Origin: Bdellovibrionota bacterium
GTDB taxonomy: Bacteria; Bdellovibrionota_C; UBA2361; JBIKUX01
Length of the DNA stretch: 64,000 bases
Reading direction: 5' to 3'
NCBI GenBank assembly: GCA_044347345.1
Contig: JBIKUX010000007.1
Coordinates: forward strand, 42,310 to 106,309
Shown here: piece by piece, positions 13,607 to 61,097 of the stretch
Position numbering within the stretch: the first letter of the stretch is position 1
How the letters are laid out: the number at the start of each line of letters is the position of its first letter
The notes under the pieces: model-generated
Seen by the model: only the letters and a program-made list of their open reading frames with translations
Databases searched by the model: none
Told to the model about the DNA's origin: nothing
Position numbers and translations under genes: made by a program

Positions 13607-14278
13607 CTAATCCTCATCTCCCTTGTCAGGAGTCTTAAGCACGGAGAGCACAGGGATCTTGTCTAGTTCGGTATTATGCACCGCTTCGATAAGTCGAACT
13701 TTTAGCTCGTGCGGCAGCGACATTAGTGATTCTTCCTCGAAGTAGCAGAGGGCTTTAAGAGCACTTTGCGGAGCAAACGTATGCCCATACAGTGCTTGGC
13801 CTGCTGCAAGTATAGCAGGCAGTGCAATCCCGTGAGTAATCAGTGCGTCTATATCAATATAGTCTTTCGCCTCTGCCCGTTTCTGCACAACTGCAGCCTT
13901 TGTTCCGGCAATATCAAGCAACGAAGCAACTCTCAATTGATTGTCTGGCGCAAACAAGGGGGGGCGCAGCAACGGCAGATGAGGCACGCCAAAGAAAGAG
14001 AGCTTTACCCACCCACCTCTTTCCACGCCGACGGTGAGAGTCTGCGGTGCCTTTTCCAAAATCGTCGCACCTTGCAGCAGCTCGAGAGCGAGCACTTCAT
14101 CTGGATCAATTAATCTTGTGCCGAAAAAATTAAAATCAATAGACTCCCGATGCCCAAGATGAAGAGCAAGAGCGGTACCACCGTAAAGAGTGAACCATGG
14201 CGGAATCGCAACTAGCTCATGCCAAAGTTCTCTTTGGGGCGTAGGAAGTATCTGTAGCTGCGGAAGAAATGGTGCCAT
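13607..14278 (-). CDS. AbiEii/AbiGii-family nucleotidyltransferase (type IV TA toxin-like)
   Basis: LYGGTALALHLGHRESIDFNFF, VKLSFF, DIAGTK, KRAEAKDYIDI. Probable ATG at 14278. Confidence 0.85.
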   Translation of the reverse strand: MAPFLPQLQILPTPQRELWHELVAIPPWFTLYGGTALALHLGHRESIDFNFFGTRLIDPDEVLALELLQGATILEKAPQTLTVGVERGGWVKLSFFGVPHLPLLRPPLFAPDNQLRVASLLDIAGTKAAVVQKRAEAKDYIDIDALITHGIALPAILAAGQALYGHTFAPQSALKALCYFEEESLMSLPHELKVRLIEAVHNTELDKIPVLSVLKTPDKGDED

Positions 14279-14346
14279 CGCCGCAAAGTATACTTCGTCT
14301 GTGGCCAGCGAGGCTAGATCGGAAGCCGCGCGTATTAAACCTTTGC

Positions 14347-14490
14347 GACTTTGAACCTCTAAGTCTCTGAGGGAAAGAGGTGGGGGGAAAGAGGTGGGGC
14401 TGAGGCGATACTCTTTATACCATCCGAAATGCCTTTCCGCCTGTAAGAACAACCTCGCGGGCCATACTAGTTCCGGAATTTTGCAAGAGC
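14347..14490 (+). repeat. Composite repeat: 14347-14397 matches 19863-19944 and 14398-14490 matches 20963-21055
   Basis: The 93-bp block has one mismatch. The first block carries CTCTAAGTCTCTGAGGGAAAGAGGTGG, an IS50-like end. Confidence 0.9.
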
Positions 14491-16179: not shown

Positions 16180-17370
16180 TTAGCCAATCAACCCTTCAAA
16201 AAGCTCTTTGGGAGATTCAGCAGAGAGTAATCTATCTCCAATCTCTCGGGTGATGAGCAGCGTCTTCGACTCTGGATATTCCTGCTTAAAGGCATTGAGC
16301 CCTTTGTAACCCGCATCTTTTCCCGACTTGATCTCAACCGCACAGGTAAATTTCGGACTCTCGACAACAACATCAACATCCTGTCGGGAGTTAGACCAAT
16401 AGTGAAGTTGATACTCCATGGTGTTAAATAGCGAGATCATCGCCGCCTCGTACACGTGACCGAACCATGCGCTGTCATGGCGTATTTTGGTGGGGTCATT
16501 TAGCCCATGAATCAGAGCACTCGCAAGAGGAATAATTTTTGGGCTTGATGTTCGTTGTCGTATTTTACCACCGGAGTATCGATAAAGAAGCTTGAGTAGA
16601 AAGCCTTTCTCCATGAGCTCGAGGTAGTTCTTGATGGTAGATGAAGCGGACTTTTCATTCAGTTGCCCTACCAATTTCGAGAAGGAGATCTCCTGACAGG
16701 GGAGAGAAAGGACAATGTGCAGCAACTGCCTAAAGACAGCCGTATTGATAACTGGCCGGAGAGAAAAAATATCTTTGGTGATAATCGGCTCTATGATGGC
16801 GTCTCTAATGAAATTTGAGCACCGCTCAAACTCCTGACTGGATCTCTTCTTCAGCAACTCACCTAGTATCGGATAGCCACCAAAGGTTAGGTAATCATAC
16901 AGGTTCCATTGGTAGAGCGAACTCATTTCATAATGACTCCAGTGTGGAGCCTTTATGAGTTCAAAACGACCAAGCAGGCTCTCTTCGCCTTGCAGCAAAA
17001 GATCGAGGTTGGAAGAACCCAAGATAACGACGCTTAACTCTCTTCTGCTTCTCTCTTCGTCATACAGCTCTTTGATCAGCGGTGCCCACCCAGAAACGTT
17101 CTGTATTTCATCGAATGCGATTATTTTATGTCCAGGAATCCTTTTAATCTGTTCCCATTCAAACCGTATAGTTTGATGAGGATCAGAACCAGGGTTATCA
17201 AACTGCACATACCTTGCACGATCAGGAAAGGTCTGTAGAAGCGTCTTAATGGCTGTGGTCTTTCCCACCTGTCTTGGGCCACACAAAACCTGAATCAGTG
17301 GCGTGAAAGACGTCAGACGCTCTTCCAATATCCCGTAGAATTGTCTAGTAAAAACAGCTTGTTTTGCCAT
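16180..17370 (-). CDS. AAA_14/DUF4143 ATP-binding protein (intact)
   Basis: GPRQVGKTT, FDEIQ, LGSS, ESLLGRF, FGGYP, YWSN..DVDVV, AVEIKSG. Confidence 0.9.
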   Translation of the reverse strand: MAKQAVFTRQFYGILEERLTSFTPLIQVLCGPRQVGKTTAIKTLLQTFPDRARYVQFDNPGSDPHQTIRFEWEQIKRIPGHKIIAFDEIQNVSGWAPLIKELYDEERSRRELSVVILGSSNLDLLLQGEESLLGRFELIKAPHWSHYEMSSLYQWNLYDYLTFGGYPILGELLKKRSSQEFERCSNFIRDAIIEPIITKDIFSLRPVINTAVFRQLLHIVLSLPCQEISFSKLVGQLNEKSASSTIKNYLELMEKGFLLKLLYRYSGGKIRQRTSSPKIIPLASALIHGLNDPTKIRHDSAWFGHVYEAAMISLFNTMEYQLHYWSNSRQDVDVVVESPKFTCAVEIKSGKDAGYKGLNAFKQEYPESKTLLITREIGDRLLSAESPKELFEGLIG

Positions 17371-23955: not shown

Positions 23956-25401
23956 TTAACGTGTTAAAGAGGGCAGCCTTAAAGTATCAATTATGGCTCT
24001 AAGTAGCGCTATATTATCAGAGTGACCAGTCATACAAGCAGTGACCCTACCCCGTAAAGGACGGCCTAATAAGCTTAGATCACCTATAACATCTAATATT
24101 TTGTGCCGAACAAATTCATCAGGGAATCGAAGCGCTACATTAATCGGGCCATCCTCGCCAACTAGAACAAAATTATCAAATCGACCACCTTGAGCGAGAC
24201 CCTGCCTCTGTAACCCACCAATGTCACGTACCAAACCAAAAGTACGCGCAGGAGCGATGTCAGCTAAATACTGTTCTGGAGAAGAGAGCGTAAAAGAATA
24301 TTCTTGAATTCCCAACGGTGGCGGATAGACTAATTTATATGTAACCGAAAAATCCTCCGCTGGCTCAATCTCAATAAATTCACCTCGCTCACCAGATGTA
24401 GCAACACGAATTGTTTGTGGAATAGCTACTTCCCAAATATCACCATCTTGCTCTTCGACACCCGTCTCACTGATCAAAGAATAGAAATCAAGTGCTGACC
24501 CATCCATGGCCGGTACTTCATCGTTACACTTAATCAGCAGATTTGTTATTCCAAAAGCTCTAAGAGCAGAAAGTAAATGCTCAACAGTGCTCACATGTAC
24601 GCCAGAACCCTTAAGAGTAGTGGCAAAGCCTGTAGATTCTACAAAAGAAACTAGTGCTGGTACGGCAGATCCCCCAGCCACTCCAGCAAAATGAATACCT
24701 GACCCTGAAGGAAGAGGCTCCAAGCTAAGTCCCGTCTTGCGGCCAGTATGTAGCCCTTGCCCGTAAACTAATGCATTTCCAGCCAAAGTGCGTTGCGATA
24801 TTTTTCTTCCGGCTGCCACCTTATCCGAAAAAATGAACGATAAAGGATTTATCTTTACAGCTTGACGAAGTATGACCTTTGAGTCTTGTAATCTTCTGTT
24901 CCCATGCAAGGGCTCTCCTTGCAAGATTGCACTGTTATCATCGACTTCATTTACAGATGCACTTTTATCGTAATCACTTTTATCGTAATCATTGCCCGTC
25001 CCAGAGACACTAGGCGATGATGTTACTGACTCAGGTTGCTTAGATATAAGCCGCCTAACTGTTTCCACTGTGACTGTCAGATCCAGAGGTTTCTCCAAAA
25101 AGTGAGAGGCTCCCTGCTTTGTAGCCTCTACAGCAGTGGCTATTGTTGCATGACCGCTAATCATAACCACTGGCACTTTAGGGGCAGCAGCAATTATTTG
25201 CCCCAATGCCTCTAATCCATCAATACCCGGAAGCCAGATATCAAGAAATATCAGAGCAGGTCGCTCGTTCTCTAAAAACTTAAACGCTAATTCAGCATCA
25301 TTCACTACTACGGTTTCCAGCCCTTCATCAGCAAGTATTTGCTGTAAAGCCCGACCAATGCTCGGCTCATCGTCAATCACTAATACTCGCCCTGAGGTCA
25401 T
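23956..25401 (-). CDS. lpxC: Response-regulator receiver domain fused to UDP-3-O-acyl-GlcNAc deacetylase LpxC
   Basis: REC: VIDDE, FLDIWLP, ISGH, LEKP. LpxC: QRTL...GQGLHTG, STVEHLLSAL, EVPAMDGSA, IAPARTFG, RHKILDVIGD, GH. Confidence 0.93.
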   Translation of the reverse strand: MTSGRVLVIDDEPSIGRALQQILADEGLETVVVNDAELAFKFLENERPALIFLDIWLPGIDGLEALGQIIAAAPKVPVVMISGHATIATAVEATKQGASHFLEKPLDLTVTVETVRRLISKQPESVTSSPSVSGTGNDYDKSDYDKSASVNEVDDNSAILQGEPLHGNRRLQDSKVILRQAVKINPLSFIFSDKVAAGRKISQRTLAGNALVYGQGLHTGRKTGLSLEPLPSGSGIHFAGVAGGSAVPALVSFVESTGFATTLKGSGVHVSTVEHLLSALRAFGITNLLIKCNDEVPAMDGSALDFYSLISETGVEEQDGDIWEVAIPQTIRVATSGERGEFIEIEPAEDFSVTYKLVYPPPLGIQEYSFTLSSPEQYLADIAPARTFGLVRDIGGLQRQGLAQGGRFDNFVLVGEDGPINVALRFPDEFVRHKILDVIGDLSLLGRPLRGRVTACMTGHSDNIALLRAIIDTLRLPSLTR

Positions 25402-25479
25402 GAAACTGGATTCCGATTTAATAAGTGGCCTCATATTTTTTTACAACCATATTCTGTAACTATACTAGCCAATAAAAAA

Positions 25480-26793
25480 TTAACACATGATCGTCTGATC
25501 TCTATCTGGCCCCACGCTGACTATACTAACAGGAACCCCTGCAAGATCGGCAATCAAAGATAAATATCGCCGCGCTGCATCAGGAAGATCACTTAACCTT
25601 CTGGCTCCTGAGATATCCTCATTCCAACCTTCAGTTTGAATGTACTCCACTCCTACCCTACTGAGCTCATCTGCAAGCATGGGGATATTATCTGTAAACT
25701 TTTGTTCACCCAAGGTATAAGAACACGCAATCTTCAGCTCAGATAATCCGGATAGCACATCAAGTTTAGTAATAATCAGTTGTGAAATACCACTAATTTT
25801 AATCGCATACCTAAGAAGAACCATATCAAGCCATCCACATCGCCGAGCTCGACCGGTAGTGGTACCAAACTCACTACCTTGCTGTCTAAGAAACTCACCC
25901 GTCTCTTCTTGCAATTCAGTAGGAAATGGCCCCTCACCAACGCGAGTTGAATAAGCCTTGGTTACTCCAAAAATTGTTCCAATAAACTCAGGTGTTACTC
26001 CACAGCCTGAGGCGATTGACGCTGGTAGGGTAGAAGATGAAGTAACAAAGGGAACCGTGCCAAAAATTGGATCTAGCAATACTCCTTGAGCTCCTTCAAA
26101 AACCACTTTTTCTCCGCGACCTTTAGCCTCAAGCAATACCTCACTTCCGTCACCGCAAAAAGGTAAAACCTCTGCTACCGCTTGCTCTATTGATTCCCAA
26201 ATAGTAGCAAATGATACACCATCTCTGTCTCCAAGAACTTTAGTCATATATAAATTTTTTTGCTCAACTACAGAGACGAGTCTACTGCGCAAAGTATCAA
26301 GCGCGCGGAGCTCAGCTACCCGCACCCCACATCTAGCGGCTCGATCCTCATAACATGGCCCTATACCTCGACCAGTAGTACCAATCTTTACTCCACCAGA
26401 AGACCCACCACTACCGCTTTCGCGCAAGTTATCTATTCGACGATGATAAGGAAGCACAAGCTCTGTACGTCCATCAACAATAAGACGCTCTGGGCTAACA
26501 TTTATTCCAGCTTGCCGCAATCTTGTTACTTCATCGGCAAAACCTTGTGGTTCTAAAACTACACCCGCGCCAATTAAGCACCTCGTGCTGCGGCGCAAAA
26601 TACCAGACGGTATAAGATGTAATTTAGTGGTAATACCGCCTACCACTAAAGTATGACCAGCATTATTACCCCCATGAAAGCGCACCACCAAATGAGAATC
26701 TTCAGTCAAAAGGTCGACTATTTTGCCCTTACCCTCATCTCCCCATTGCGCTCCAACAATTGTGAGTGCCTTATCGTCTCTGATTACAGTCAT
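25480..26793 (-). CDS. purA: Adenylosuccinate synthetase
   Basis: GAQWGDEGKGK, GGNNAGHT, IGTTGRGIGP, EGAQG, EFGTTTGRARR. The ATG overlaps the truB stop. Confidence 0.97.
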   Translation of the reverse strand: MTVIRDDKALTIVGAQWGDEGKGKIVDLLTEDSHLVVRFHGGNNAGHTLVVGGITTKLHLIPSGILRRSTRCLIGAGVVLEPQGFADEVTRLRQAGINVSPERLIVDGRTELVLPYHRRIDNLRESGSGGSSGGVKIGTTGRGIGPCYEDRAARCGVRVAELRALDTLRSRLVSVVEQKNLYMTKVLGDRDGVSFATIWESIEQAVAEVLPFCGDGSEVLLEAKGRGEKVVFEGAQGVLLDPIFGTVPFVTSSSTLPASIASGCGVTPEFIGTIFGVTKAYSTRVGEGPFPTELQEETGEFLRQQGSEFGTTTGRARRCGWLDMVLLRYAIKISGISQLIITKLDVLSGLSELKIACSYTLGEQKFTDNIPMLADELSRVGVEYIQTEGWNEDISGARRLSDLPDAARRYLSLIADLAGVPVSIVSVGPDRDQTIMC

Positions 26794-27815
26794 AAAAAGT
26801 TGTCTTCTTCTCGTTGATAAAATAACCTGCTCCACTCTGGGTCTCCTTGAAAATTTACCGAACAACCAAGAAGTCCAATCGGAGCCTGCTGAGGATTAGA
26901 GTATATAACAATTTGCTGATATTTGTCGTCGTTGGTTAGATTTTTTCTACTACAAGCAGAAAAATCATGAAGTAACTTGGAAACTCTCTCTGGGAAAATG
27001 CCAGTTTGCAGCATTTTGCACTCAGTTTCATTGCAAGTAAGAGGAATAAAACTAGATGGCTCAAAAATTCGCCACCAAGGTAGGATAGTTAAACCACTTT
27101 CTGCGTCGACAGTTACATCAGGTTTAGTAGTAAAAGATACATTAATTTTATTTGAATTTTTTACATTGAATGGGAAAATTGATTCCCGCCGTAAACTTAG
27201 TAAACAACCCTCTGTTCCTAGTATCTTGGCAATATCTCTAGCTAAGGATCTAATATAGGTACCCTTACTACACCTGATCGAAAAAGATACAGATTGAACT
27301 CGGTCTCCATCAAGTGTAGCTACTCCTAGTGAAAAAGAAAAAACTGTGACCTCTCGAGCCTTAAGTACCGGCTCATTACGACAATTCTCGGCCTGATCCA
27401 TATTGGTAGCCCTTAAATGTCGAGAAATAACGTAAGCTCTTACTCCAGAAACTTTAACAGCACTTACATTTGGGGGAACTTGAGAAATTTTACCTGTAAA
27501 AGAAGGGATTATATCCAGCAGGTCTTTTAATTTAGGCAGTACATGCGAACGCTTAATAATTCTACCTGTAACGTCATCAGTATCGGTGGCTAGTCCAAAT
27601 AAAAACTCACCAGAATACTCCTTAACACCAGATTGCACAAAGGAAACCAGTCTAGTTGCCCGACCAGTTAATAGAACTAAAAGGCCTGTAGCTGCAGGAT
27701 CAAGAGTACCTGCATGCCCAATTTTATCAAACTTATGAGTTCTCTTTACAAGCCCTACGACTCGTGCTGACGAATATCCATAAGGTTTGTCGACAAGAAT
27801 TACTCCGCTTTGCAT
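26790..27815 (-). CDS. truB: tRNA pseudouridine(55) synthase
   Basis: KIGHAGTLDPAATG, CSKGTYIRSLARD. Confidence 0.95.
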   Translation of the reverse strand: MQSGVILVDKPYGYSSARVVGLVKRTHKFDKIGHAGTLDPAATGLLVLLTGRATRLVSFVQSGVKEYSGEFLFGLATDTDDVTGRIIKRSHVLPKLKDLLDIIPSFTGKISQVPPNVSAVKVSGVRAYVISRHLRATNMDQAENCRNEPVLKAREVTVFSFSLGVATLDGDRVQSVSFSIRCSKGTYIRSLARDIAKILGTEGCLLSLRRESIFPFNVKNSNKINVSFTTKPDVTVDAESGLTILPWWRIFEPSSFIPLTCNETECKMLQTGIFPERVSKLLHDFSACSRKNLTNDDKYQQIVIYSNPQQAPIGLLGCSVNFQGDPEWSRLFYQREEDNFL

Positions 27816-36899: not shown

Positions 36900-37790
36900 T
36901 TAAGCTTCAGAGAGTTCACGCTCCAATAACCTAAAATACTGATCGGCACGACCATAAGCAGATGCATATCCTGTATGTGAAGCAAATCGCAATAATCGAA
37001 TTTCACTTCTTGCAGGAAGACTCCGATCAGGATGATATCTCTCCCAGTCACCTCTTTCATAAGCCACAACCAGCTCTCTCGCACTGGCTATAATTCTTCT
37101 TGCTTCCGAACGTAATTTTTCTTCGGGAGTAAGCTCTCGACCCTCAACAAATACATTAATAATTGGCAAAATACCCCGTTGAGCTAGATAACGATTCACT
37201 ACAATTTGCGGCGAAAAACCAAAATCATTGTGTAACCTGTAATCAATTTTACTTTGGATAAATTTTACCTCGTTAGCCATGGAGATAAACTGATACCCTA
37301 AATGAACCAAGGCAAGTAAATCGCCGACTGAAGCCAATATTGCTGCAGTATGAACCAATGTCACCGACTCAACCGTCATAGCCTCAGCTATAAACCGAGC
37401 AACCTTGCCAATCATAGTGCCTCTTAAAAGAAGAGCATCGTACCACCACCGCTCTTCACCCTTGAGAGGAAAACCAGTTAACTGGCGATCCATGACAGAC
37501 AAAAATGACTGAAGTCCATTCTCTCCTAGACGGATTACTGATTGCTCAAGCGACGATAACGGTGCTAATCCAGACCCAGAAAGACGATTAGCCGCACAAA
37601 GAAGCTCTAAAGTAAGTACAGGATCATCCAATAAGACTTCGCGTAACTGATTCGGACGTAAATTCTTATTAGACGCTAGAAGGTGCACTCGTCCTAAAGA
37701 ATTGGCCGAAGGAGCAAGTGCCCTCTGATAAATCTTAGATAGTGGCTCTTGCTTTTTATTAGGAGAATTAACAGTTAACCGACGCCTCAT
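36900..37790 (-). CDS. Stand-alone HDOD domain protein
   Basis: L..VLLDDPVLTLELL.AAN...SSLEQSVIRLG, AAILASVG.L. Confidence 0.75.
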   Translation of the reverse strand: MRRRLTVNSPNKKQEPLSKIYQRALAPSANSLGRVHLLASNKNLRPNQLREVLLDDPVLTLELLCAANRLSGSGLAPLSSLEQSVIRLGENGLQSFLSVMDRQLTGFPLKGEERWWYDALLLRGTMIGKVARFIAEAMTVESVTLVHTAAILASVGDLLALVHLGYQFISMANEVKFIQSKIDYRLHNDFGFSPQIVVNRYLAQRGILPIINVFVEGRELTPEEKLRSEARRIIASARELVVAYERGDWERYHPDRSLPARSEIRLLRFASHTGYASAYGRADQYFRLLERELSEA

Positions 37791-37844
37791 TTTAATAGAG
37801 CATCTCAATAAAAAAAAATAAAATCAGCCCTTAGTCACTTACCA

Positions 37845-39485: not shown

Positions 39486-40529
39486 ATGTCTTCCTCACAT
39501 TCATCTATCTTTCCAAACGCTACTACTGCCACCTTACCAAATCTGCCACTGTTAAACCTCGAGGTTACGGCAGTGCCAAAAAAGCCTCTAGCTTTACCAG
39601 CTTTTAAGGGCTCTTGGCTACGAGGTATTTTAGGAGTAGAGCTAAAGCGCTCAGTTTGCCTTTTTCCTGACCATATTTTATGCAATCAGTGTGAAGTAGT
39701 ATCAAGTTGTGGCTTTCCTCTGCTCTATGGTGAGGGTGTTTCTGGTACTAATGGAGCTCCCCCACTTTATATAATCCGATTGAGCAAAACTGAGAGCAAT
39801 TTTTCCACCGATAGAAATTGTTCTATCGAAACTCCCCTCAAATTTGGAATATCCCTTATAGGGCCAGCCACATCTTGGGCTCTTCAGATAGTCATCGCTT
39901 TAAAAAAGGCTCTTTTTGCTCGTCATATTAATTTGCAGTCAGTGATATCAGAAGACACTCTAATCTTTAGTTCAGATGGAGGCGGAGAGTGGAAATGGAC
40001 ACCTCCTACAATTCAATTTTTACCATTCCCTGAACTCATTCCCAATGCCTCTCATAAAACGATTAATACAGATAAAATTTCATCTGATGAAGGGCCACTG
40101 CAATATACCATTAATTTTATCTCTCCATTTCGAGTAAAAGCTAACGGCTCTTTAGTTAATGGTTCGAATCTTTCACTACCAATTTTGGTTTCAGCCATGG
40201 AGCGACGTCTGAGCACAACATGGAAGGTAGCAACTAACGTCACACCAGCTCGCGAACTTTTTAATGACATTAAGTTGGCTGCACAATCTGCAGTTCCAAC
40301 TCTAAAATCACTCACCTGGCATGAAGAAAGACGTTTTAGTCATCGTCAAAAAACTGGTATGAATCTGGGAGGTATCTATGGCACGGTTAGTTATCTACTA
40401 CCCTCACAAATTTTTAGTCAAGCATTTGACAACCTGTTTACAGTAGCCTCAAAACTGCATATCGGAAAACAAGTTTCCTTCGGTTTAGGTTCCTTTAGTT
40501 TTTCAAAAATAACTCATCTGATTGCCTGA
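39486..40529 (+). CDS. cas6: CRISPR RAMP endoribonuclease Cas6 (orphan)
   Basis: FKGSWLRGILG, Cys cluster C..ILC..C....SC, F.SPFRVK, RRFSHRQK..MNLGG, G-rich loop LHIGKQVSFGLG. Confidence 0.85.
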   Translation: MSSSHSSIFPNATTATLPNLPLLNLEVTAVPKKPLALPAFKGSWLRGILGVELKRSVCLFPDHILCNQCEVVSSCGFPLLYGEGVSGTNGAPPLYIIRLSKTESNFSTDRNCSIETPLKFGISLIGPATSWALQIVIALKKALFARHINLQSVISEDTLIFSSDGGGEWKWTPPTIQFLPFPELIPNASHKTINTDKISSDEGPLQYTINFISPFRVKANGSLVNGSNLSLPILVSAMERRLSTTWKVATNVTPARELFNDIKLAAQSAVPTLKSLTWHEERRFSHRQKTGMNLGGIYGTVSYLLPSQIFSQAFDNLFTVASKLHIGKQVSFGLGSFSFSKITHLIA

Positions 40530-40684: not shown

Positions 40685-42121
40685 TTAGCTCAAATCTAGA
40701 GAATCAGCGACTAGAGAATCAGTTAATGGAGGACGCAGGAGCAACTTTCTTGCGGCTATTGCTGTTTCTGCCAAGGAAACATGAGTTCTGTGAAGGCGTC
40801 CAATCTGATTAAGATGGTCTGCTGTTTGAGATATAAGCCTTGATATATCTCCAGGAGCCGCTCCCGCTAACGTTATAAGGGATACAAACTCATCCCAACT
40901 AGTAGAGTACATCCACTCCACCGCTGCTGTGGCAGCATCTGGAACAACTTTAAGCTCAACTGTAAGTGGACTATCATAGGCCGCTCTTACCTTGGCAACT
41001 ATCTCCTCTAACTTACGTACTTCAGAAGAGCCTAAAGGACTTCGCTTAATGGAAAAATATTGCCTATGCGGATCAGCTGAAAGGGATGCAACTATTGCCA
41101 CCAATTTTTCAGAAGTGACTCCATCGACTAAACCAGCTTCAATTATCTCAGCAAGCTCAAGAACCAGACTAGTGCACAATTCAGCAGCCCAGAGTCCTTT
41201 AATTGTAAGATTACCATTCTCAATAAATTTTAGAGATTCAAGACCAACTAATGATTGCCTAAGCTGAGACAACTGTCGCCCCTCAAGTTGGTCAGCCTCT
41301 CTCTCAAGTCTCCTAGCTCTTTTCTCAATACGCTTTTTCTGGGTCTCTTTCAGAGACTCCCCACCATCTCCACTTTGCGAATAAATACTCATTACTTCCT
41401 CACGCAAACCCTTGGCGGTTTTACGATCCAGAAAGGCTGCCAAACTACGGGCAACAGTGTAACTTAGATCATCTACATTTCGAAATTTTAAAAGATTTAA
41501 CACCGTTGAAGGCGCAGCAAAATAAGCAGAGCTTAAGGGCTCGGGAGGGCGATTTGCCACCTCATGAATAACTCTAGCATCACAAAACAAACTCGGAGCC
41601 ACAAGACATAATCCCACCGCATCTTTACCTCTGCGACCGGCTCTACCTGCCATTTGCTGGAGCTCAGATGGAAGTAATACTCTAAATCCCTCGGAACCTC
41701 TCTTACTGTGAGAAGTAATCACAACACTTCGAGCTGGAAAATCTACGCCAGCTGCTACAGTTCCTGTAGCTATCAATAAACGGAGCAATCCTTGAGCCAT
41801 GAGCTCTTCAAGCAACAAGCGCCACTGCAAAAGCTGCCCTGCATGATGAGCTCCTGCACCTGTTTGAACTAAAGCCGCATACTGTGGATGAGCTCTAATA
41901 ACCTCAGCCATGAATTGATACTTAACAAGTACAGCATCTACTGCACGTTCAATCTTATCTTGATGTACCTGAGAAAGCTTTGTGGTCCGACCTGAAGCAA
42001 GAAATTCTATATCTAAGTCACATTGCTTGCGGGCTGATCTAAAAAGAATAGCAGGAATAAGTGAATCTCGTTCTAATTGAGCAAGGATTAGACGCACTGG
42101 ATATTCGCGGAGAATTGTCAT
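40685..42121 (-). CDS. Ski2/HelY-type DExH helicase, C-terminal half (RecA2 plus C-terminal domain)
   Basis: PAILFRSARKQCD, HHAGQL, ATGTVAAGVDFPARSV, QQMAGRAGRRG. Confidence 0.85.
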   Translation of the reverse strand: MTILREYPVRLILAQLERDSLIPAILFRSARKQCDLDIEFLASGRTTKLSQVHQDKIERAVDAVLVKYQFMAEVIRAHPQYAALVQTGAGAHHAGQLLQWRLLLEELMAQGLLRLLIATGTVAAGVDFPARSVVITSHSKRGSEGFRVLLPSELQQMAGRAGRRGKDAVGLCLVAPSLFCDARVIHEVANRPPEPLSSAYFAAPSTVLNLLKFRNVDDLSYTVARSLAAFLDRKTAKGLREEVMSIYSQSGDGGESLKETQKKRIEKRARRLEREADQLEGRQLSQLRQSLVGLESLKFIENGNLTIKGLWAAELCTSLVLELAEIIEAGLVDGVTSEKLVAIVASLSADPHRQYFSIKRSPLGSSEVRKLEEIVAKVRAAYDSPLTVELKVVPDAATAAVEWMYSTSWDEFVSLITLAGAAPGDISRLISQTADHLNQIGRLHRTHVSLAETAIAARKLLLRPPLTDSLVADSLDLS

Positions 42122-42135
42122 GGTGCTTTTGTACC

Positions 42136-43023
42136 TTATGATGAGCGGGTTCGATTTGGACGGTTTGAATCTCTGCGAGAACGTGCTTGACCTTCTTTCT
42201 TACTGGAACTAAATCGACCATTATTTTGATTAGTATTTTTGATATTTTTTTTCTTAGCTATCAAGCTCCTACCCAGTGGCGGCCTTAGACGCATTCCGGT
42301 TTGATCTAGAGTAGCTCCTTGATAAAACTCTGCTACTTCAGAAAATATGGCGCCACCTGCATCACGTAAAGGTAAAACTCCGTAGTCTGGATGCAAAAAA
42401 CCGTAGCGTAATTCCACCGGTCGCACGGCTTTTGTTACAACTACACACTCCTTACCACGCACTTCACTTATCCATTCAGCAATTTCAATGTAGTTTGAAA
42501 TTGACGCAGAAAGCATTAATAACGTTGAACTAAGTGGAGTAAGTATGATGCTCTCTTCCCATACTGGCCCCCGTTGCGCATCAGAAATATAATGCACTTC
42601 ATCGAGAACAACTAAACTATACCGCTCACCCACTCTATAAAGTTCATTACGATATATTTCGGTAGTCGCTACTACAACAGCCGCATCTCCTTCAATCTTT
42701 CTGTCACCTGTTAACAATCCTACCGGATACTCTGGCTCAAATTTAGCCTTTAATTCATTAAATTTAGTATTTGAAAGAGCCTTTAAAGGTGTGGTATAGA
42801 CTGCTGAACTCTTTTGAGCCAAAGTGGTTTTGATTGCCTCAAGCGCAATAAATGTTTTACCAGAGCCCGTAGGCGCTACTACCAAGACGTCTTTTTTCTC
42901 TCCAACGGCAGCTATTGCCTCTCTCTGAAAATCATCTACAACAAAAAGCTCGCCTTCAGGAGTACCTATTCCACTTAAAAAATTTGCTCTAGCATTTTCG
43001 ATACGACGCAGTTTATTCCCCAC
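42136..43023 (-). CDS. Ski2/HelY-type DExH helicase, N-terminal half (RecA1)
   Basis: DDFQREA, APTGSGKT, TTPLKALSN, GLLTGD, DEVH, LSAS, RPVEL. Confidence 0.88.
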   Translation of the reverse strand: MGNKLRRIENARANFLSGIGTPEGELFVVDDFQREAIAAVGEKKDVLVVAPTGSGKTFIALEAIKTTLAQKSSAVYTTPLKALSNTKFNELKAKFEPEYPVGLLTGDRKIEGDAAVVVATTEIYRNELYRVGERYSLVVLDEVHYISDAQRGPVWEESIILTPLSSTLLMLSASISNYIEIAEWISEVRGKECVVVTKAVRPVELRYGFLHPDYGVLPLRDAGGAIFSEVAEFYQGATLDQTGMRLRPPLGRSLIAKKKNIKNTNQNNGRFSSSKKEGQARSRRDSNRPNRTRSS

Positions 43024-44942: not shown

Positions 44943-46736
44943 CTAACTTTCCATTTTTGTATCTTGAATTATAGAAGTGGCAGCAAGAATAGCTTTTTTA
45001 ATGGCCGAGCTTAGATCGCGAATTGTAAAAGGCTTACGAAGAAAAAAAGTAGCACGATGAGTTAGTAAATCATCAACTGTTTCTGGAACCCACATGCCAC
45101 TGATAACTATAACTGGCATCTCTGGGAACCTCTTACGAACCTCTCTTACAACTAAATCTCCACCTAAATAAGGCATAACGATGTCTACCATAGCCAAAAG
45201 GAACGGACTTTGACGAGACTTTAGTTTCTCTAAAGCTTCTTCACCAGAAGCTGCGGACTCTACCGAATACCCAAGATGACGCAGGCTCATTGCTATGGCA
45301 TTTCGAACTAACTCTTCATCATCTACAACTAAAATAGTTTTATCTGAATCAAATGTTGAATATGCTTGAGTTTGTGATTGAGTTTGAGGGCTGTCATAAA
45401 TTTTCTGAGGATTACCAGCATCTATAACATTAGACTGCTTCAAATTTTCGCTCAATGCGTCACTAGTAACTTTACGAGCTAAGAATACCGTAACTGTTGT
45501 GCCAACTGATTCTTTAGATTCAACTTCTACTAACCCACCAAATCTGGTAACTATCGACCAAACGGTCGATAAACCCAGACCTATTCCTCGTCCAGCCTTC
45601 GTGGAAAAAAATGGCCGAAAGATAAACTTCTTCACATCACTCGGGATACCACATCCTTTATCGGTAATGCGCAGCATAACACAGGATTCGCTTCCCACAG
45701 ATTGTTGTTTTAACTTGCCTCCGTTTACCTCCTTAAGCTCTATGCCAATTTCACCACTCTCCCCAAGTGCATCGCGTGCATTTATTACGAGATTTACGAT
45801 AACTTGCGAAAGAGGTCCCTCGGAGCCCAACACAAGACACTCTTCATCGGTAACATCTAAATTTAAACTAAAGTTTGGAGATAAAGCTCCGCGAAGCAAC
45901 TTGCAGGTACTTAAAACCACATCTCTTAGAGAAATTTGGGAAACCTCATCTTCTTCCTTTTTTGCAAAAGCCAGAATTTGTCGAGTGATCTGAGCTGATT
46001 TCTTTGCCCCCTGTTCAATAGCATCTATTGATTCAATATGAGTACCAGTTCTAGGGAGTATCGACTTAAGAAAAGAAACATGGCCTAAAATACCAGTAAG
46101 CATATTATTAAAATCATGCGCTACTCCTCCTGCAAGGATGCCCAGTGTCTCAAGCCTTTGTGGATGCAAATGGGTATCCTGCATTCTAAAGGTATCGCTG
46201 ATAATTTTATGCGAAAATTCTGGGCTCAAAGATTTACCATAATCAGGAGGGATAGTGGGATGTACACTATGTAAAACTAATCCTTTTATACCGTCGATAA
46301 ACTTAAGTTCTTCAACTCGCGCAACCAAACCCAAACCCAAACCCAAACCCAAACCCAAACCCTGACCGCGACCCTGAGCCAGCTCATTCTGCGAAGACGC
46401 GCTGTTCGGACTCTGATAACAGAGACGCATTAGCTGTAACTCACCACCCGATAAAATTCTGCAAGAAGAGTCATCAGCAAATAAATCATCACACAACAAA
46501 TGATCCGAGACGGCCAAACGGTGATCGATTAAGGTACAAGAAATAGTAGCTCCTACTATTTCTTGTACCTCACCGCTATCTTCATCTGCATTCTGACCTA
46601 GTAACAATTTTTCAGCTTGCTTATTTACATAAAGGCATACTCCAGCGGTATCAAGAAAGATTATTGGCAAAGAAATAGAGTGAATAACATGTTGGAAAAG
46701 AGGTAACATGTACACATAATCTAGCTGAAAGGTCAT
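44943..46736 (-). CDS. Hybrid sensor histidine kinase/response regulator (PAS-HisKA-HATPase-REC)
   Basis: AGGVAHDFNN, NLVINARDA, DKGCGI, PFFSTK, GLGLS, VVDDE, DIVMP, KPF. Confidence 0.92.
   Translation of the reverse strand: MTFQLDYVYMLPLFQHVIHSISLPIIFLDTAGVCLYVNKQAEKLLLGQNADEDSGEVQEIVGATISCTLIDHRLAVSDHLLCDDLFADDSSCRILSGGELQLMRLCYQSPNSASSQNELAQGRGQGLGLGLGLGLGLVARVEELKFIDGIKGLVLHSVHPTIPPDYGKSLSPEFSHKIISDTFRMQDTHLHPQRLETLGILAGGVAHDFNNMLTGILGHVSFLKSILPRTGTHIESIDAIEQGAKKSAQITRQILAFAKKEEDEVSQISLRDVVLSTCKLLRGALSPNFSLNLDVTDEECLVLGSEGPLSQVIVNLVINARDALGESGEIGIELKEVNGGKLKQQSVGSESCVMLRITDKGCGIPSDVKKFIFRPFFSTKAGRGIGLGLSTVWSIVTRFGGLVEVESKESVGTTVTVFLARKVTSDALSENLKQSNVIDAGNPQKIYDSPQTQSQTQAYSTFDSDKTILVVDDEELVRNAIAMSLRHLGYSVESAASGEEALEKLKSRQSPFLLAMVDIVMPYLGGDLVVREVRKRFPEMPVIVISGMWVPETVDDLLTHRATFFLRKPFTIRDLSSAIKKAILAATSIIQDTKMES
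46325..46361. repeat. (CCAAAC)6 microsatellite encoding a Gly-Leu repeat in the kinase
   Basis: Seen directly; translates to GLGLGLGLGLGL. Confidence 0.9.
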
Positions 46737-58499: not shown

Positions 58500-61097
58500 C
58501 TAAACAAAGCTCTTAAGCTTTTTACTGCGACTCGGATGACGCAACTTTCTTAGAGCTTTTGCTTCAATCTGCCTGATTCTTTCTCGGGTTACATCGAAGT
58601 TTTGTCCTACCTCTTCTAGCGTATGGTCACTTTTTTCACCTATACCAAATCTCATTCTTAAAACTTTCTCCTCACGAGGCGTCAAACTTGCCAACACTCG
58701 GCGAGTTTGATCCTGAAGATTCATATTAACTACAGCATTAGCTGGAGAAACAACTCTCTTATCTTCTATAAAGTCACCGAGGTTAGAGTCATCCTCTTCA
58801 CCGATTGGAGTTTCAAGAGATATAGGCTCTTTTGCAATCTTAAGAACCTTTCTTACCTTATCGACCGGAATCTCCATCCGATAAGCTATCTCCTCAGGAG
58901 TTGGCTCTCTTCCAAGCTCTTGAACAAGCTGCCGACTAGTTCGAACTAGCTTATTGATCGTTTCGATCATGTGAACTGGTATTCGAATAATGCGCGCTTG
59001 ATCAGCAATGGCTCGAGTAATCGCTTGACGTATCCACCATGTAGCATACGTTGAAAACTTGTAACCTCGCTGATACTCGAATTTATCAACGGCCTTCATT
59101 AATCCAATATTTCCCTCTTGAATCAGGTCAAGAAATTGAAGTCCTCTGTTTGTATATTTTTTAGCTATAGATACAACCAAGCGCAAATTAGCTTCAACTA
59201 ACTCTCTCTTTGCATCAGCAGCTTTCATTTCGCCATCCATGAGACGCTGAACCGCAGAGCGAAACTCAAGAAACCCCATCTGGACTCGCTCTTCAAGAGC
59301 GCTAATTTTTGCAATAATTTCAGTTAAGCCAGTTACTATTTGTTTGGCGTCGCCTACCTTTATTCTGCATTTCTTGGCGACACGTTGTATGGCGAGCTCA
59401 TCACCTGAGGAAAGCTCTCTGTCAATTTCTAGGATATCACGTGGAGTGCACTTCCACTTGCGCGCAGATTCTCTAAGTCGCTGAAAAAGAGGTTTTGTTT
59501 CCTCATAAACCGCTTTAATGCGGTCAGACATGATATTGAACTGTTTTTGATTGAGGTTTAATTCAACCGTCTTTTGAACAGCTTCTTCTAGTAAGCTTGA
59601 GAGATCTTTGTGTATGTCGTCTCGCTTATCACTTGATGAAGAGAGTACTTTGCCATACGCATTGCGAACATCATCTAGTAGCTTCTTATAAACATAAGAT
59701 TTCTCAAGAAAAGCCTCTTTTTGGGCTAATTCTTCTTCGCTCACTGTAAGTTGAGGAGACTGCTCACCTAAATTATTCTCTTCAGAATCGAGCTCAGCTT
59801 CAGAGTCATCTTCGTCGTCATCCCCATCTGATCCGTCTGGGCCTTCCGCTTCTTCTTCTATGAACAAATCTCTTAGGCGTAATTCGTCATTCTTAACTCG
59901 ATCAAAAAGATTAGCCACATACTCGATAGTAAGAGGTTGAGTTAAAACTTCTTGACGAGCAAGCAACAGACCGCTCTCAATCTTTTTTGCTATCTGCACC
60001 TCGCCTTCACGAGTGAGTAAGCTTACATTTCCCATCTCTCTTAGGTATAGACGAACTGGGTCAGTACTCTTTCCTAGAGCAGAAGTATCTAGCAAAGGTT
60101 CTCGAAGGCGACGACCACCTCCAGCTCCATCATCATCAAACTCTTCCTGTGCCTGCTCAATTATATCGATGTCGAATTCACCAAACATCGATATAACTGA
60201 TTCCATCTGCTCTTCTGAAACAAATTCCTCAGATAGAGCCTCGCTCAGATCATCAACGGTGACAAATCCTTTCTCTTTACCGAGGTCTAGGAGGCGCCGT
60301 ACCTCGCGAGCACTGCGACCACCTGAACCTGCTCCGTCGCCGTCTTCATCATCCTCAATATCTTCCTCGTATGATGTATCCTCAAATTCTTCTACCGCTA
60401 ACTTACGGCGAACTTCCCGCTCATACTCGTCGGGAGCCTTTTGAACATTTATTCCTCTTCTTGGCCGCGCAGTTCCAACTATAATTTGTTGATTTGAACT
60501 TATCTCTTTATGCTCAGGGGAACTAACAAATTGCTCACTGGCTGTGGTAACCTGACTTCTTGCATTAGCTGTTTTTATCTTAATTGATGGTGTAGATTCG
60601 GACCGGAGATGTTTCGCGGGTCTTTCGCGCTTTTGTGCTCGCTTTGCTTTGATAAGTGATGATGCTCTTTTTGCAGATATCACGCGTCGCTTAACACTAG
60701 CACCTATTTTTCCACTACCAGAGCGACCACCAGCTCTTGTTCCAGCTTTTCTTACTTGAGTTGGAGTTGATGATAATGATGAACCTTTATGGGCACCCTT
60801 TTTGTTACCAGTGACTGCTGTATCTTGCGAGCCACGGCGACGCGTAGCTGTAACAGCCTTGCTCGTTGAGCTGCCTGACTTGCGGCTTTTCTTAGTTTGG
60901 TCTCCTGCTTTTGATTTTGTACTAGTTGATTTCTTTATTTTTTTTGCCATTTTATCGACAGAACTACGAGTCGGAACACTGCTAGATTTTTTTGGGCGAC
61001 CAGTTGTTTTTGTGACTCCGCTTTTTTTGGAACTAGCTTTTTTAACGCCTTTGGTCTTTGCCGACGCTATCCCTTTTTTTAATTTCTTGTCCGCCAC
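58500..61097 (-). CDS. rpoD: RNA polymerase sigma-70 factor with a long basic N-terminal extension
   Basis: [51 protein letters not shown]. Confidence 0.97.

Follow-up and report, generated by a model that had tools for sequence, protein, structure and literature searches.

Can a two-component system control lipid A synthesis through a receiver attached to the enzyme itself? This question is raised by an open reading frame (ORF) on contig JBIKUX010000007.1 of a Bdellovibrionota bacterium (GCA_044347345.1), of which a stretch of 64,000 nucleotides was analysed and is referred to here as the window. On its minus strand, positions 23956..25434 encode a response regulator receiver (REC) domain, a linker and LpxC, the committing enzyme of lipid A synthesis, in a single frame of 492 amino acids (aa) counted from the first ATG and closed by the stop codon at 23956-23958. 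An earlier note on this DNA had described such a continuous ORF and had suggested that the activity or stability of LpxC might be under direct two-component control, in a manner not known to have been characterised. According to our analysis, the ORF is continuous as described, with the correction that the frame, counted from the first ATG, reaches 25434 and that the end given in the note, 25401, is a second ATG, corresponding to Met12. The public gene call P0002 (481 aa, 100% identical) begins at Met12; which ATG serves as the start codon is doubtful, there being no obvious Shine-Dalgarno sequence ahead of either. We regard the locus as encoding a real, conserved and apparently undescribed variant of the two-component system, one having LpxC itself as the regulator output.

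The fusion is real and fixed. Both domains are present in all of the best 120 database relatives, and in each of 30 relatives belonging to 20 other families of the same order, the LpxC match is part of a 430-490-aa frame that also contains the receiver match just ahead of it (the gene meets contig ends in G012 and G027). LpxC was also found in 119 of the 124 genomes of the collection that make up our phylum sample, in open frames of 430-526 aa apart from shorter cases; of five shorter frames that were fetched, four proved to be cut at contig ends, and the fifth (412 aa, from the small genome G031) is a receiver-LpxC fusion. A scan of one genome per species detected 137 genomes that encode a fusion relative, and both parts were matched in 79 of the 80 kept loci, the remaining one being cut by a contig end. 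The titles of the kept loci refer to uncultured Bdellovibrionota or Bdellovibrionales, Oligoflexia, "Deltaproteobacteria", Dadabacteria and Deferrimicrobium or Deferrimicrobiaceae. Absence from relatives, which the earlier note had named as an outcome that would speak against its proposal, is not what is observed. The same continuous frame in the 30 relatives, in the 79 loci and in the 120 database proteins, together with the occurrence of the identical protein on 5 contigs, refutes the explanation that an artefact of assembly or gene calling merged two genes. Public annotations do show the domain combination, with the proteins named just LpxC or NtrX.

The LpxC deacetylase domain occupies residues 212-486 (23977..24801). 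The Pfam family PF03331 matches residues 214-482 (E 4.6e-78, 262.9 bits against a cut-off of 27) and is covered from position 1 to 267 of its 268 positions, while the TIGR00325 lpxC equivalog model reaches 223.4 bits, its cut-off being 187.25. Among 33 aligned fused proteins, the residues E285-H286 of the TVEH motif, T398-F399, H444, K445, D448 and D452 of the HKxLD..D motif, and H471 are invariant, which bears out the complete LpxC with TVEH and HKxLD motifs read from the sequence before. Eight of these residues (E285, H286, T398, H444, K445, D448, D452 and H471) are also common, at a level of at least 95%, to 39 unfused or FabZ-fused LpxC sequences; their zinc-binding and catalytic counterparts in Escherichia coli LpxC are presumably H79, H238, D242, E78, H265, T191 and K239. 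When the structural model of the fusion was superposed on solved LpxC structures, the TM-score by target was 0.79-0.96 with a root mean square deviation of 1.3-3.1 A, and the Aquifex aeolicus LpxC chains gave 0.95-0.96. Fused and unfused LpxC domains are separated by six positions (G235, Y294, K302, C318, P371 and L424), at two of which the window protein carries F (294) and Y (318). By residues and fold, the domain is a predicted UDP-3-O-acyl-GlcNAc deacetylase that is catalytically complete.

Whether this is the only lpxC gene, a check that the earlier note had proposed, can be answered for the genome at hand (2.53 Mb in 68 contigs, 95.8% complete), whose sole LpxC match is the fusion. Since LpxA, LpxB and LpxK were each found once in the genome, its lipid A pathway appears to depend on the fusion protein. 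A second fused lipid A gene is present outside the window, where LpxB is joined to an MsbA-like ABC exporter (LpxB, ABC_membrane, ABC_tran) in a 1077-aa frame (G000:C7, locus L197:4329-7562, minus strand) that adjoins kdtA/waaA and lpxK.

The receiver (residues 17-125, 25060..25386) matches Pfam Response_reg (PF00072) with an E value of 4.5e-26 and keeps all the phospho-acceptor residues, as had been read before: D21, D22, D65, S93 and K115 are invariant in the 33 fused proteins, the predicted phospho-acceptor Asp65 being encoded at 25240..25242. When the alignment is widened to 77 sequences, distant clades among them, no change is seen at D22, S93 or K115, and D21 and D65 are present in at least 90%, so that the phospho-acceptor pocket is conserved over several phyla. 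The last REC helix ends at residue 131 and LpxC starts at 212, a gap that agrees with the linker of about 80 aa noted earlier. This gap is not uniform. Its first part, counted from the end of the receiver match (residues 126-190, 24865..25059), is unconserved and variable in length in the 33-sequence alignment and includes a low-complexity insert not shared by relatives; in the longer relatives described below, a degenerate AAA+ domain, with or without HTH_8, occupies the corresponding place. The predicted local distance difference test (pLDDT) score of the AlphaFold model, with a mean of 86.4, falls below 50 for residues 136-190 only. The second part (residues 191-211, 24802..24864), which immediately precedes LpxC, shows a consensus motif and is predicted to form a short strand and a helix, with mean pLDDT values of 81 and 90 in the 10-residue blocks of residues 191-210. 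Judged by the alignment, the receiver is as conserved as the enzyme part and the linker is not. As a separate observation, the linker of the window protein is among the longest of the 33 and carries a short duplicated acidic low-complexity stretch that is missing from the 85%-identical P0003.

The receiver had been called NtrC/NtrX-like, and this can now be sharpened to NtrX-derived on the grounds of its best NCBIfam model and of long relatives. The best model for the receiver part is NtrX (NF051870), with 97.2 bits, a match confined to the receiver and below the cut-off of 600, and the nearest solved structures, 4d6x_A and 5m7n_A, are what we take to be Brucella NtrX. Pfam detects no AAA+ or helix-turn-helix (HTH) domain in the window protein. 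A profile search of 1.84 billion representatives, however, recovered, besides short fusions of about 400-505 aa, long proteins of 650-749 aa in which Response_reg, Sigma54_activat, AAA_lid_14 and at times HTH_8 precede LpxC. NtrX is the best NCBIfam model for two of these long forms, at 335 and 247 bits and again under the cut-off of 600, and P0124 carries an NtrX annotation in one source. Intermediates were found as well: P0139 (491 aa, labelled Entotheonellia) consists of REC, HTH_8 and LpxC, and P0136 (505 aa, labelled Nitrospinota) is REC plus LpxC by Pfam, with a Fis-type helix-turn-helix still readable by eye. When 16 long forms were aligned, the receiver and LpxC were well conserved, whereas the AAA+ core was eroded and the HTH was missing in six. 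Of the motifs known as GAFTGA, Walker A and Walker B, inspection by eye showed the GAFTGA loop to be missing, the acidic pair of Walker B to be lost and Walker A to be broken in some. Since its long relatives match NtrX best, we place the window protein at the stripped-down end of an NtrX::LpxC family, as a protein that is NtrX-derived and is not an NtrX.

A quick IQ-TREE tree was built from 100 rows of the LpxC domain alone. On it, all 58 regulator-fused rows are parted from 36 unfused and three LpxC-FabZ rows by a branch with support 100, and the short rows P0171, P0190 and P0216, which are possible fragments, fall on the fused side. Within that side, long and short forms interleave, with support 100 for P0140 plus P0139 and for P0133 plus P0144 plus P0147; the LpxC domain of the window protein falls in a clade made up of 26 short forms (support 96), with the long form P0129 as its sister (a weak 80). 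Because long and short forms interleave, the middle domains seem to have been lost repeatedly from proteins that kept the receiver. Provided that the root is among the unfused proteins, the tree fits a single fusion event, after which the AAA+ and HTH parts disappeared several times independently.

The best kinase candidate in the genome is of the NtrY type. In three metagenomic loci (L104, L111 and L122), an NtrY-type kinase of 742-746 aa with NtrY_N, HAMP, PAS, HisKA and HATPase domains lies immediately 5' of a short REC-LpxC (441, 434 and 420 aa, respectively) on the same strand; the contig of L114 starts inside the same kind of kinase ahead of a short REC-LpxC, which brings the loci to four in all. 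Loci L135, L163 and L165 encode a canonical ntrY-ntrX pair without LpxC. The genome studied here encodes one NtrY (753 aa, G000:C33:9712-11970, outside the window), matched with an E value of 5e-123 against 2.5e-18 for the next match, and with NtrY_N above its cut-off. Its gene is flanked by ruvB and a 197-aa ORF and, on the opposite side, by aconitase, and no regulator adjoins it; ruvB is also found ahead of ntrY in L104 and L111. In Bordetella, the PlrSR pair has a third, periplasmic component, PlrP, which contains DUF4390 (PMC13001219, in the part used here). Pfam gives nothing at E<=0.05 for the 197-aa ORF upstream of ntrY, and a search of the genome for DUF4390 returned no match, although its control also matched nothing.

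NtrY was detected in 31/31 genomes, counting our own and the relatives, at a single place in 30 and split across two contigs in G029; among them are genomes as small as about 1.8-1.9 Mb, in which no more than 6-10 kinase candidates are found. In the phylum sample it was found in 116/124 genomes and in 73/73 of the high-quality ones. No receiver occurs within 1.5 kb on either side in 6/6 NtrY loci examined. There is likewise no free NtrX in the genome, whose other sigma-54-type regulators all keep a GAFTGA-like loop, and the NtrX-type receiver signature is found there only in the fusion. Because NtrY is an orphan and the fusion contains the sole NtrX-type receiver, there is no other obvious partner for NtrY and no other obvious kinase for the receiver of the fusion.

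Two other candidates were considered and rejected. The sigma-54-type regulator on contig C4 is not a free NtrX, as it has a near-canonical GAFTHA loop, a full Sigma54_activat domain (247 bits) and a non-NtrX receiver. The hybrid PAS-HisKA-HATPase-REC kinase at 44943-46736, which the earlier note had put forward for phosphotransfer, is the kinase nearest to the fusion in the window, about 19.5 kb away, in keeping with the statement of the same note that no kinase is adjacent. It resembles the fusion-linked kinases weakly (E 8.4e-6 to the PAS-type kinase discussed below and 1.7e-12 to NtrY), its kind is not a conserved neighbour, and it is unlinked to the fusion in all 81 neighbourhoods that we compared; the orphan NtrY is deemed the better candidate.

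Taken as a whole, these results are best explained by the following mechanism, to which we assign a probability of roughly 0.6. The gene product would be a response regulator with the LpxC enzyme as its output, descended from an NtrX-type ancestor (REC, AAA+, HTH) that was fused to LpxC and afterwards lost its AAA+ and DNA-binding parts. The orphan NtrY-type membrane kinase would phosphorylate Asp65, and the phosphorylation state of the receiver would set the rate of UDP-3-O-acyl-GlcNAc deacetylation and hence the flux into lipid A. The gating is envisaged as CheB-like, where the unphosphorylated receiver would restrain LpxC and phosphorylation would relieve this restraint, possibly via receiver dimerisation. 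Given a disordered, variable tether and intervening domains that have proved dispensable, docking and release, or dimerisation, is favoured over rigid allostery. We take phosphorylation to be activating because this is the commoner case among response regulators with enzyme outputs. The requirement of high levels of phosphorylated regulator for viability in PlrSR fits this sign (PMC13001219, as far as the portion used extends). The sign may also be the opposite one, with phosphorylation lowering LpxC output. Single-chain models of the fusion gave predicted TM-scores of 0.76 and 0.81, over a rough expectation for two independent domains, and are not counted as evidence, and a complex prediction of the receiver (residues 12-135) against the LpxC part (residues 191-492) scored 0.01 against a mark of 0.32, which speaks neither for nor against docking. 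The direct two-component control first proposed in the earlier note has thereby gained comparative support, namely, the kept pocket, a receiver that outlasts the loss of its neighbouring domains and the adjacency of ntrY in four loci, and control itself, be it of activity or of stability, is still a matter of inference. On the comparative record, lipid A synthesis is probably under the direct control of a sensor kinase that acts at the level of the protein.

Several observations weigh against this mechanism. A receiver-only tree groups all fused receivers with three canonical ntrY-adjacent NtrX receivers (support 85), but it is weakly resolved, the same group also holds two other receivers of the genome, and the tree is by itself no proof of NtrX ancestry. 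In the genome at hand, ntrY lies on contig C33 and the fusion on C10, so that their pairing rests on relatives and on elimination. With the query used, NtrY was unmatched in 8/124 phylum genomes (55-85% complete), including both members of family f22, of which G031 has the fusion. The disordered, variable linker makes a rigid allosteric coupling unlikely. Finally, in 14 genome loci a different kinase, encoded together with an HDOD protein, adjoins the fusion in divergent orientation. It is a soluble PAS-HisKA-HATPase kinase, and it might be the cognate kinase instead of or besides NtrY. Adding to its case, the pair lies within 7 kb of the fusion in one more locus, and our genome has a clear ortholog pair (the kinase at G000:C10:15429-16601), matched at E 1.5e-76 against 4.8e-24 for the next match. 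Among the 30 relatives, however, the adjacency is seen only in two genomes of family f8 (G007 and G026) and is probably due to one rearrangement, the kinase was not found in 8 of the 30 although all of these have the fusion, and in our genome it lies some 50 kb from the fusion, with a separate receiver gene behind it that stands alone. We therefore consider it an unlikely partner. The operon as a whole (G000:C10:14458-17005, locus L101:2459-5006, outside the window) encodes the HDOD protein, the kinase and a receiver of 129 aa.

The receiver may also act on something other than catalysis, or on nothing. Phospho-dependent adaptors of proteolysis such as RssB and CpdR are known, and the receiver might govern the abundance of LpxC, its phosphorylation exposing or hiding a degradation signal or recruiting FtsH, Lon or ClpXP. 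LpxC is under proteolysis in E. coli and possibly subject to Lon in some alphaproteobacteria (PMC12444477, in excerpt); FtsH is encoded in the genome, and a flexible tether is suited to recruitment. Nevertheless, protease or adaptor genes are not conserved neighbours in the 81 loci, the LpxC domain belongs to the short type, covering A. aeolicus LpxC best, and ends in a short, variable C-terminal tail, and the LapB-type zinc ribbon is unmatched in the genome, which, with a model of 28 positions and an unspecific-looking control list, is weak evidence of absence. We hold control of abundance to be improbable, about to the same degree as the PAS-type kinase. Still far less credible is the view that the receiver is a non-signalling relic, serving merely as a folding, solubility or dimerisation module. 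The ancestral AAA+ and HTH parts have clearly decayed, and the acceptor Asp is lost in one long relative, P0147, but a relic would hardly keep the five phosphorylation residues unchanged in 33 sequences and almost unchanged in 77, or stay as conserved as the enzyme next to a linker that is not, nor does it sit well with an orphan NtrY that is retained in the ~1.8-1.9 Mb relatives with their few kinase candidates. The reading that we prefer is accordingly that of an NtrX-derived receiver gating LpxC under the control of NtrY.

To our knowledge, the well-described controls of LpxC all act via proteolysis, a partner protein or transcription. Enzyme-output response regulators are familiar from CheB, PleD, WspR and RpfG, which the fusion resembles in its N-terminal receiver, flexible linker and catalytic domain; the catalytic domain of the fusion is unrelated to theirs, and the resemblance would be one of mode of action and not of membership. 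The closest known system is NtrY/NtrX of Brucella, Rhodobacter sphaeroides and Caulobacter, called PlrS/PlrR in Bordetella. The receiver is of the same type, ntrY precedes the fusion in the four loci described above, and the long relatives keep the order REC, AAA+, HTH and, judging by eye from the GAFTGA motif as commonly known, lack that loop as NtrX does. NtrYX has, moreover, already been tied to the envelope and to lpxC transcript levels: in R. sphaeroides, deletion of ntrYX raises lpxC transcripts 8.8-fold, and no NtrX binding site was reported upstream of lpxC in the part of that study drawn on here (PMC7240162), and a review of lipid A regulation from 2025 mentions, in the section used, transcriptional control by NtrYX and ChvGI beside FtsH/LapB/YejM, MurA and Lon (PMC12444477). 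The window fusion differs from NtrX in having no AAA+ or DNA-binding domain, in an output that would be enzymatic and not transcriptional, and in being unlinked to ntrY in its genome.

Other known arrangements are more distant. In the FtsH/LapB/YejM proteolysis of E. coli and the activation by MurA in Pseudomonas aeruginosa (PMC12444477, in excerpt), the regulators are separate from LpxC, whereas in the fusion the regulator would be a covalently attached phospho-receiver. In Desulfovibrio vulgaris, the DNA-binding response regulator DVU2934, for which lpxC is the only mapped target (PMC3333781, as far as excerpted), is likewise a two-component regulator dedicated to lpxC, but it acts on transcription and the proteins are separate. 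The bifunctional LpxC-FabZ proteins (NCBIfam NF009667; P0251, P0258 and P0265) represent another natural LpxC fusion; there, however, the partner is a C-terminal metabolic enzyme and not an N-terminal signalling domain, and the LpxC domains cluster with the unfused ones on the tree. Full-text searches, in a corpus that takes in few subscription journals and no supplements, brought up no description of a receiver-LpxC or NtrX-LpxC fusion, in agreement with the earlier suggestion that the fusion is uncharacterised. The words fusion, fused, receiver and response regulator do not occur in the 2025 review (PMC12444477).

Upstream of the fusion and on the same strand lie rimP, nusA, ylxR, infB, rbfA, a DHH-family gene, truB and purA, which confirms the rimP-nusA-infB-truB-purA run recognised before and adds three genes to it. 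The gene directly upstream is purA (25480..26865, minus strand, Pfam Adenylsucc_synt), a conserved neighbour in the lineage: when the neighbouring genes were clustered across 81 fusion loci, 35 had purA at position -1 on the same strand, about 20 contained the infB-rbfA-DHH-truB-purA run, and mreB lay downstream of the fusion in 23. In the window, the 3' side of the fusion is occupied by a 96-aa ORF without a family match, an EamA-type transporter and an aldehyde dehydrogenase.

Some further features of the window deserve mention. A possible small mobile or defence islet, situated some kb downstream of the fusion (13607-14452 and 16180-17370, minus strand), consists of an AbiEii-type nucleotidyltransferase toxin homologue and an AAA_14/DUF4143 ATPase. 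Just upstream of a DUF481 gene and the rimP run lies a second, weaker HDOD protein (36900-37808, minus strand, E 8.3e-10), whose gene is not orthologous to the HDOD gene found together with the PAS-type kinase. A 347-aa ORF at 39486-40529 (plus strand) has a weak C-terminal match to Cas6 (E 3.1e-9). A Ski2-like helicase is present as two adjoining ORFs (40685-43023, minus strand), with DEAD/ResIII at 42136-43023 and Helicase_C plus DSHCT at 40685-42121, and represents either a split gene or a frameshift. Finally, an RpoD-like sigma factor of 865 aa (58500-61097, minus strand) has a long N-terminal extension, region 1.1 starting from residue 264.

The synthesis of outer-membrane lipid is controlled at LpxC, which has also long served as an antibiotic target. 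If the proposed mechanism is true, a receiver joined to LpxC would constitute a fourth mode of its control, direct phospho-signalling, fixed in one phylum and present in several others. A more far-reaching idea, which we put forward tentatively as somewhat less probable than not, is that NtrY, sensing the envelope, and REC-LpxC make up a feedback loop of two proteins in place of the enterobacterial YejM/LapB/FtsH circuit; the effect of alphaproteobacterial NtrYX on lpxC transcripts might then be the trace of an ancient NtrX-LpxC partnership, with the fusion as its "Rosetta stone". For the widespread and poorly understood NtrYX family, the fusion would, if the mechanism holds, provide a concrete biochemical output, and it would account for the changes in lpxC expression and lipopolysaccharide seen in alphaproteobacterial NtrYX mutants.

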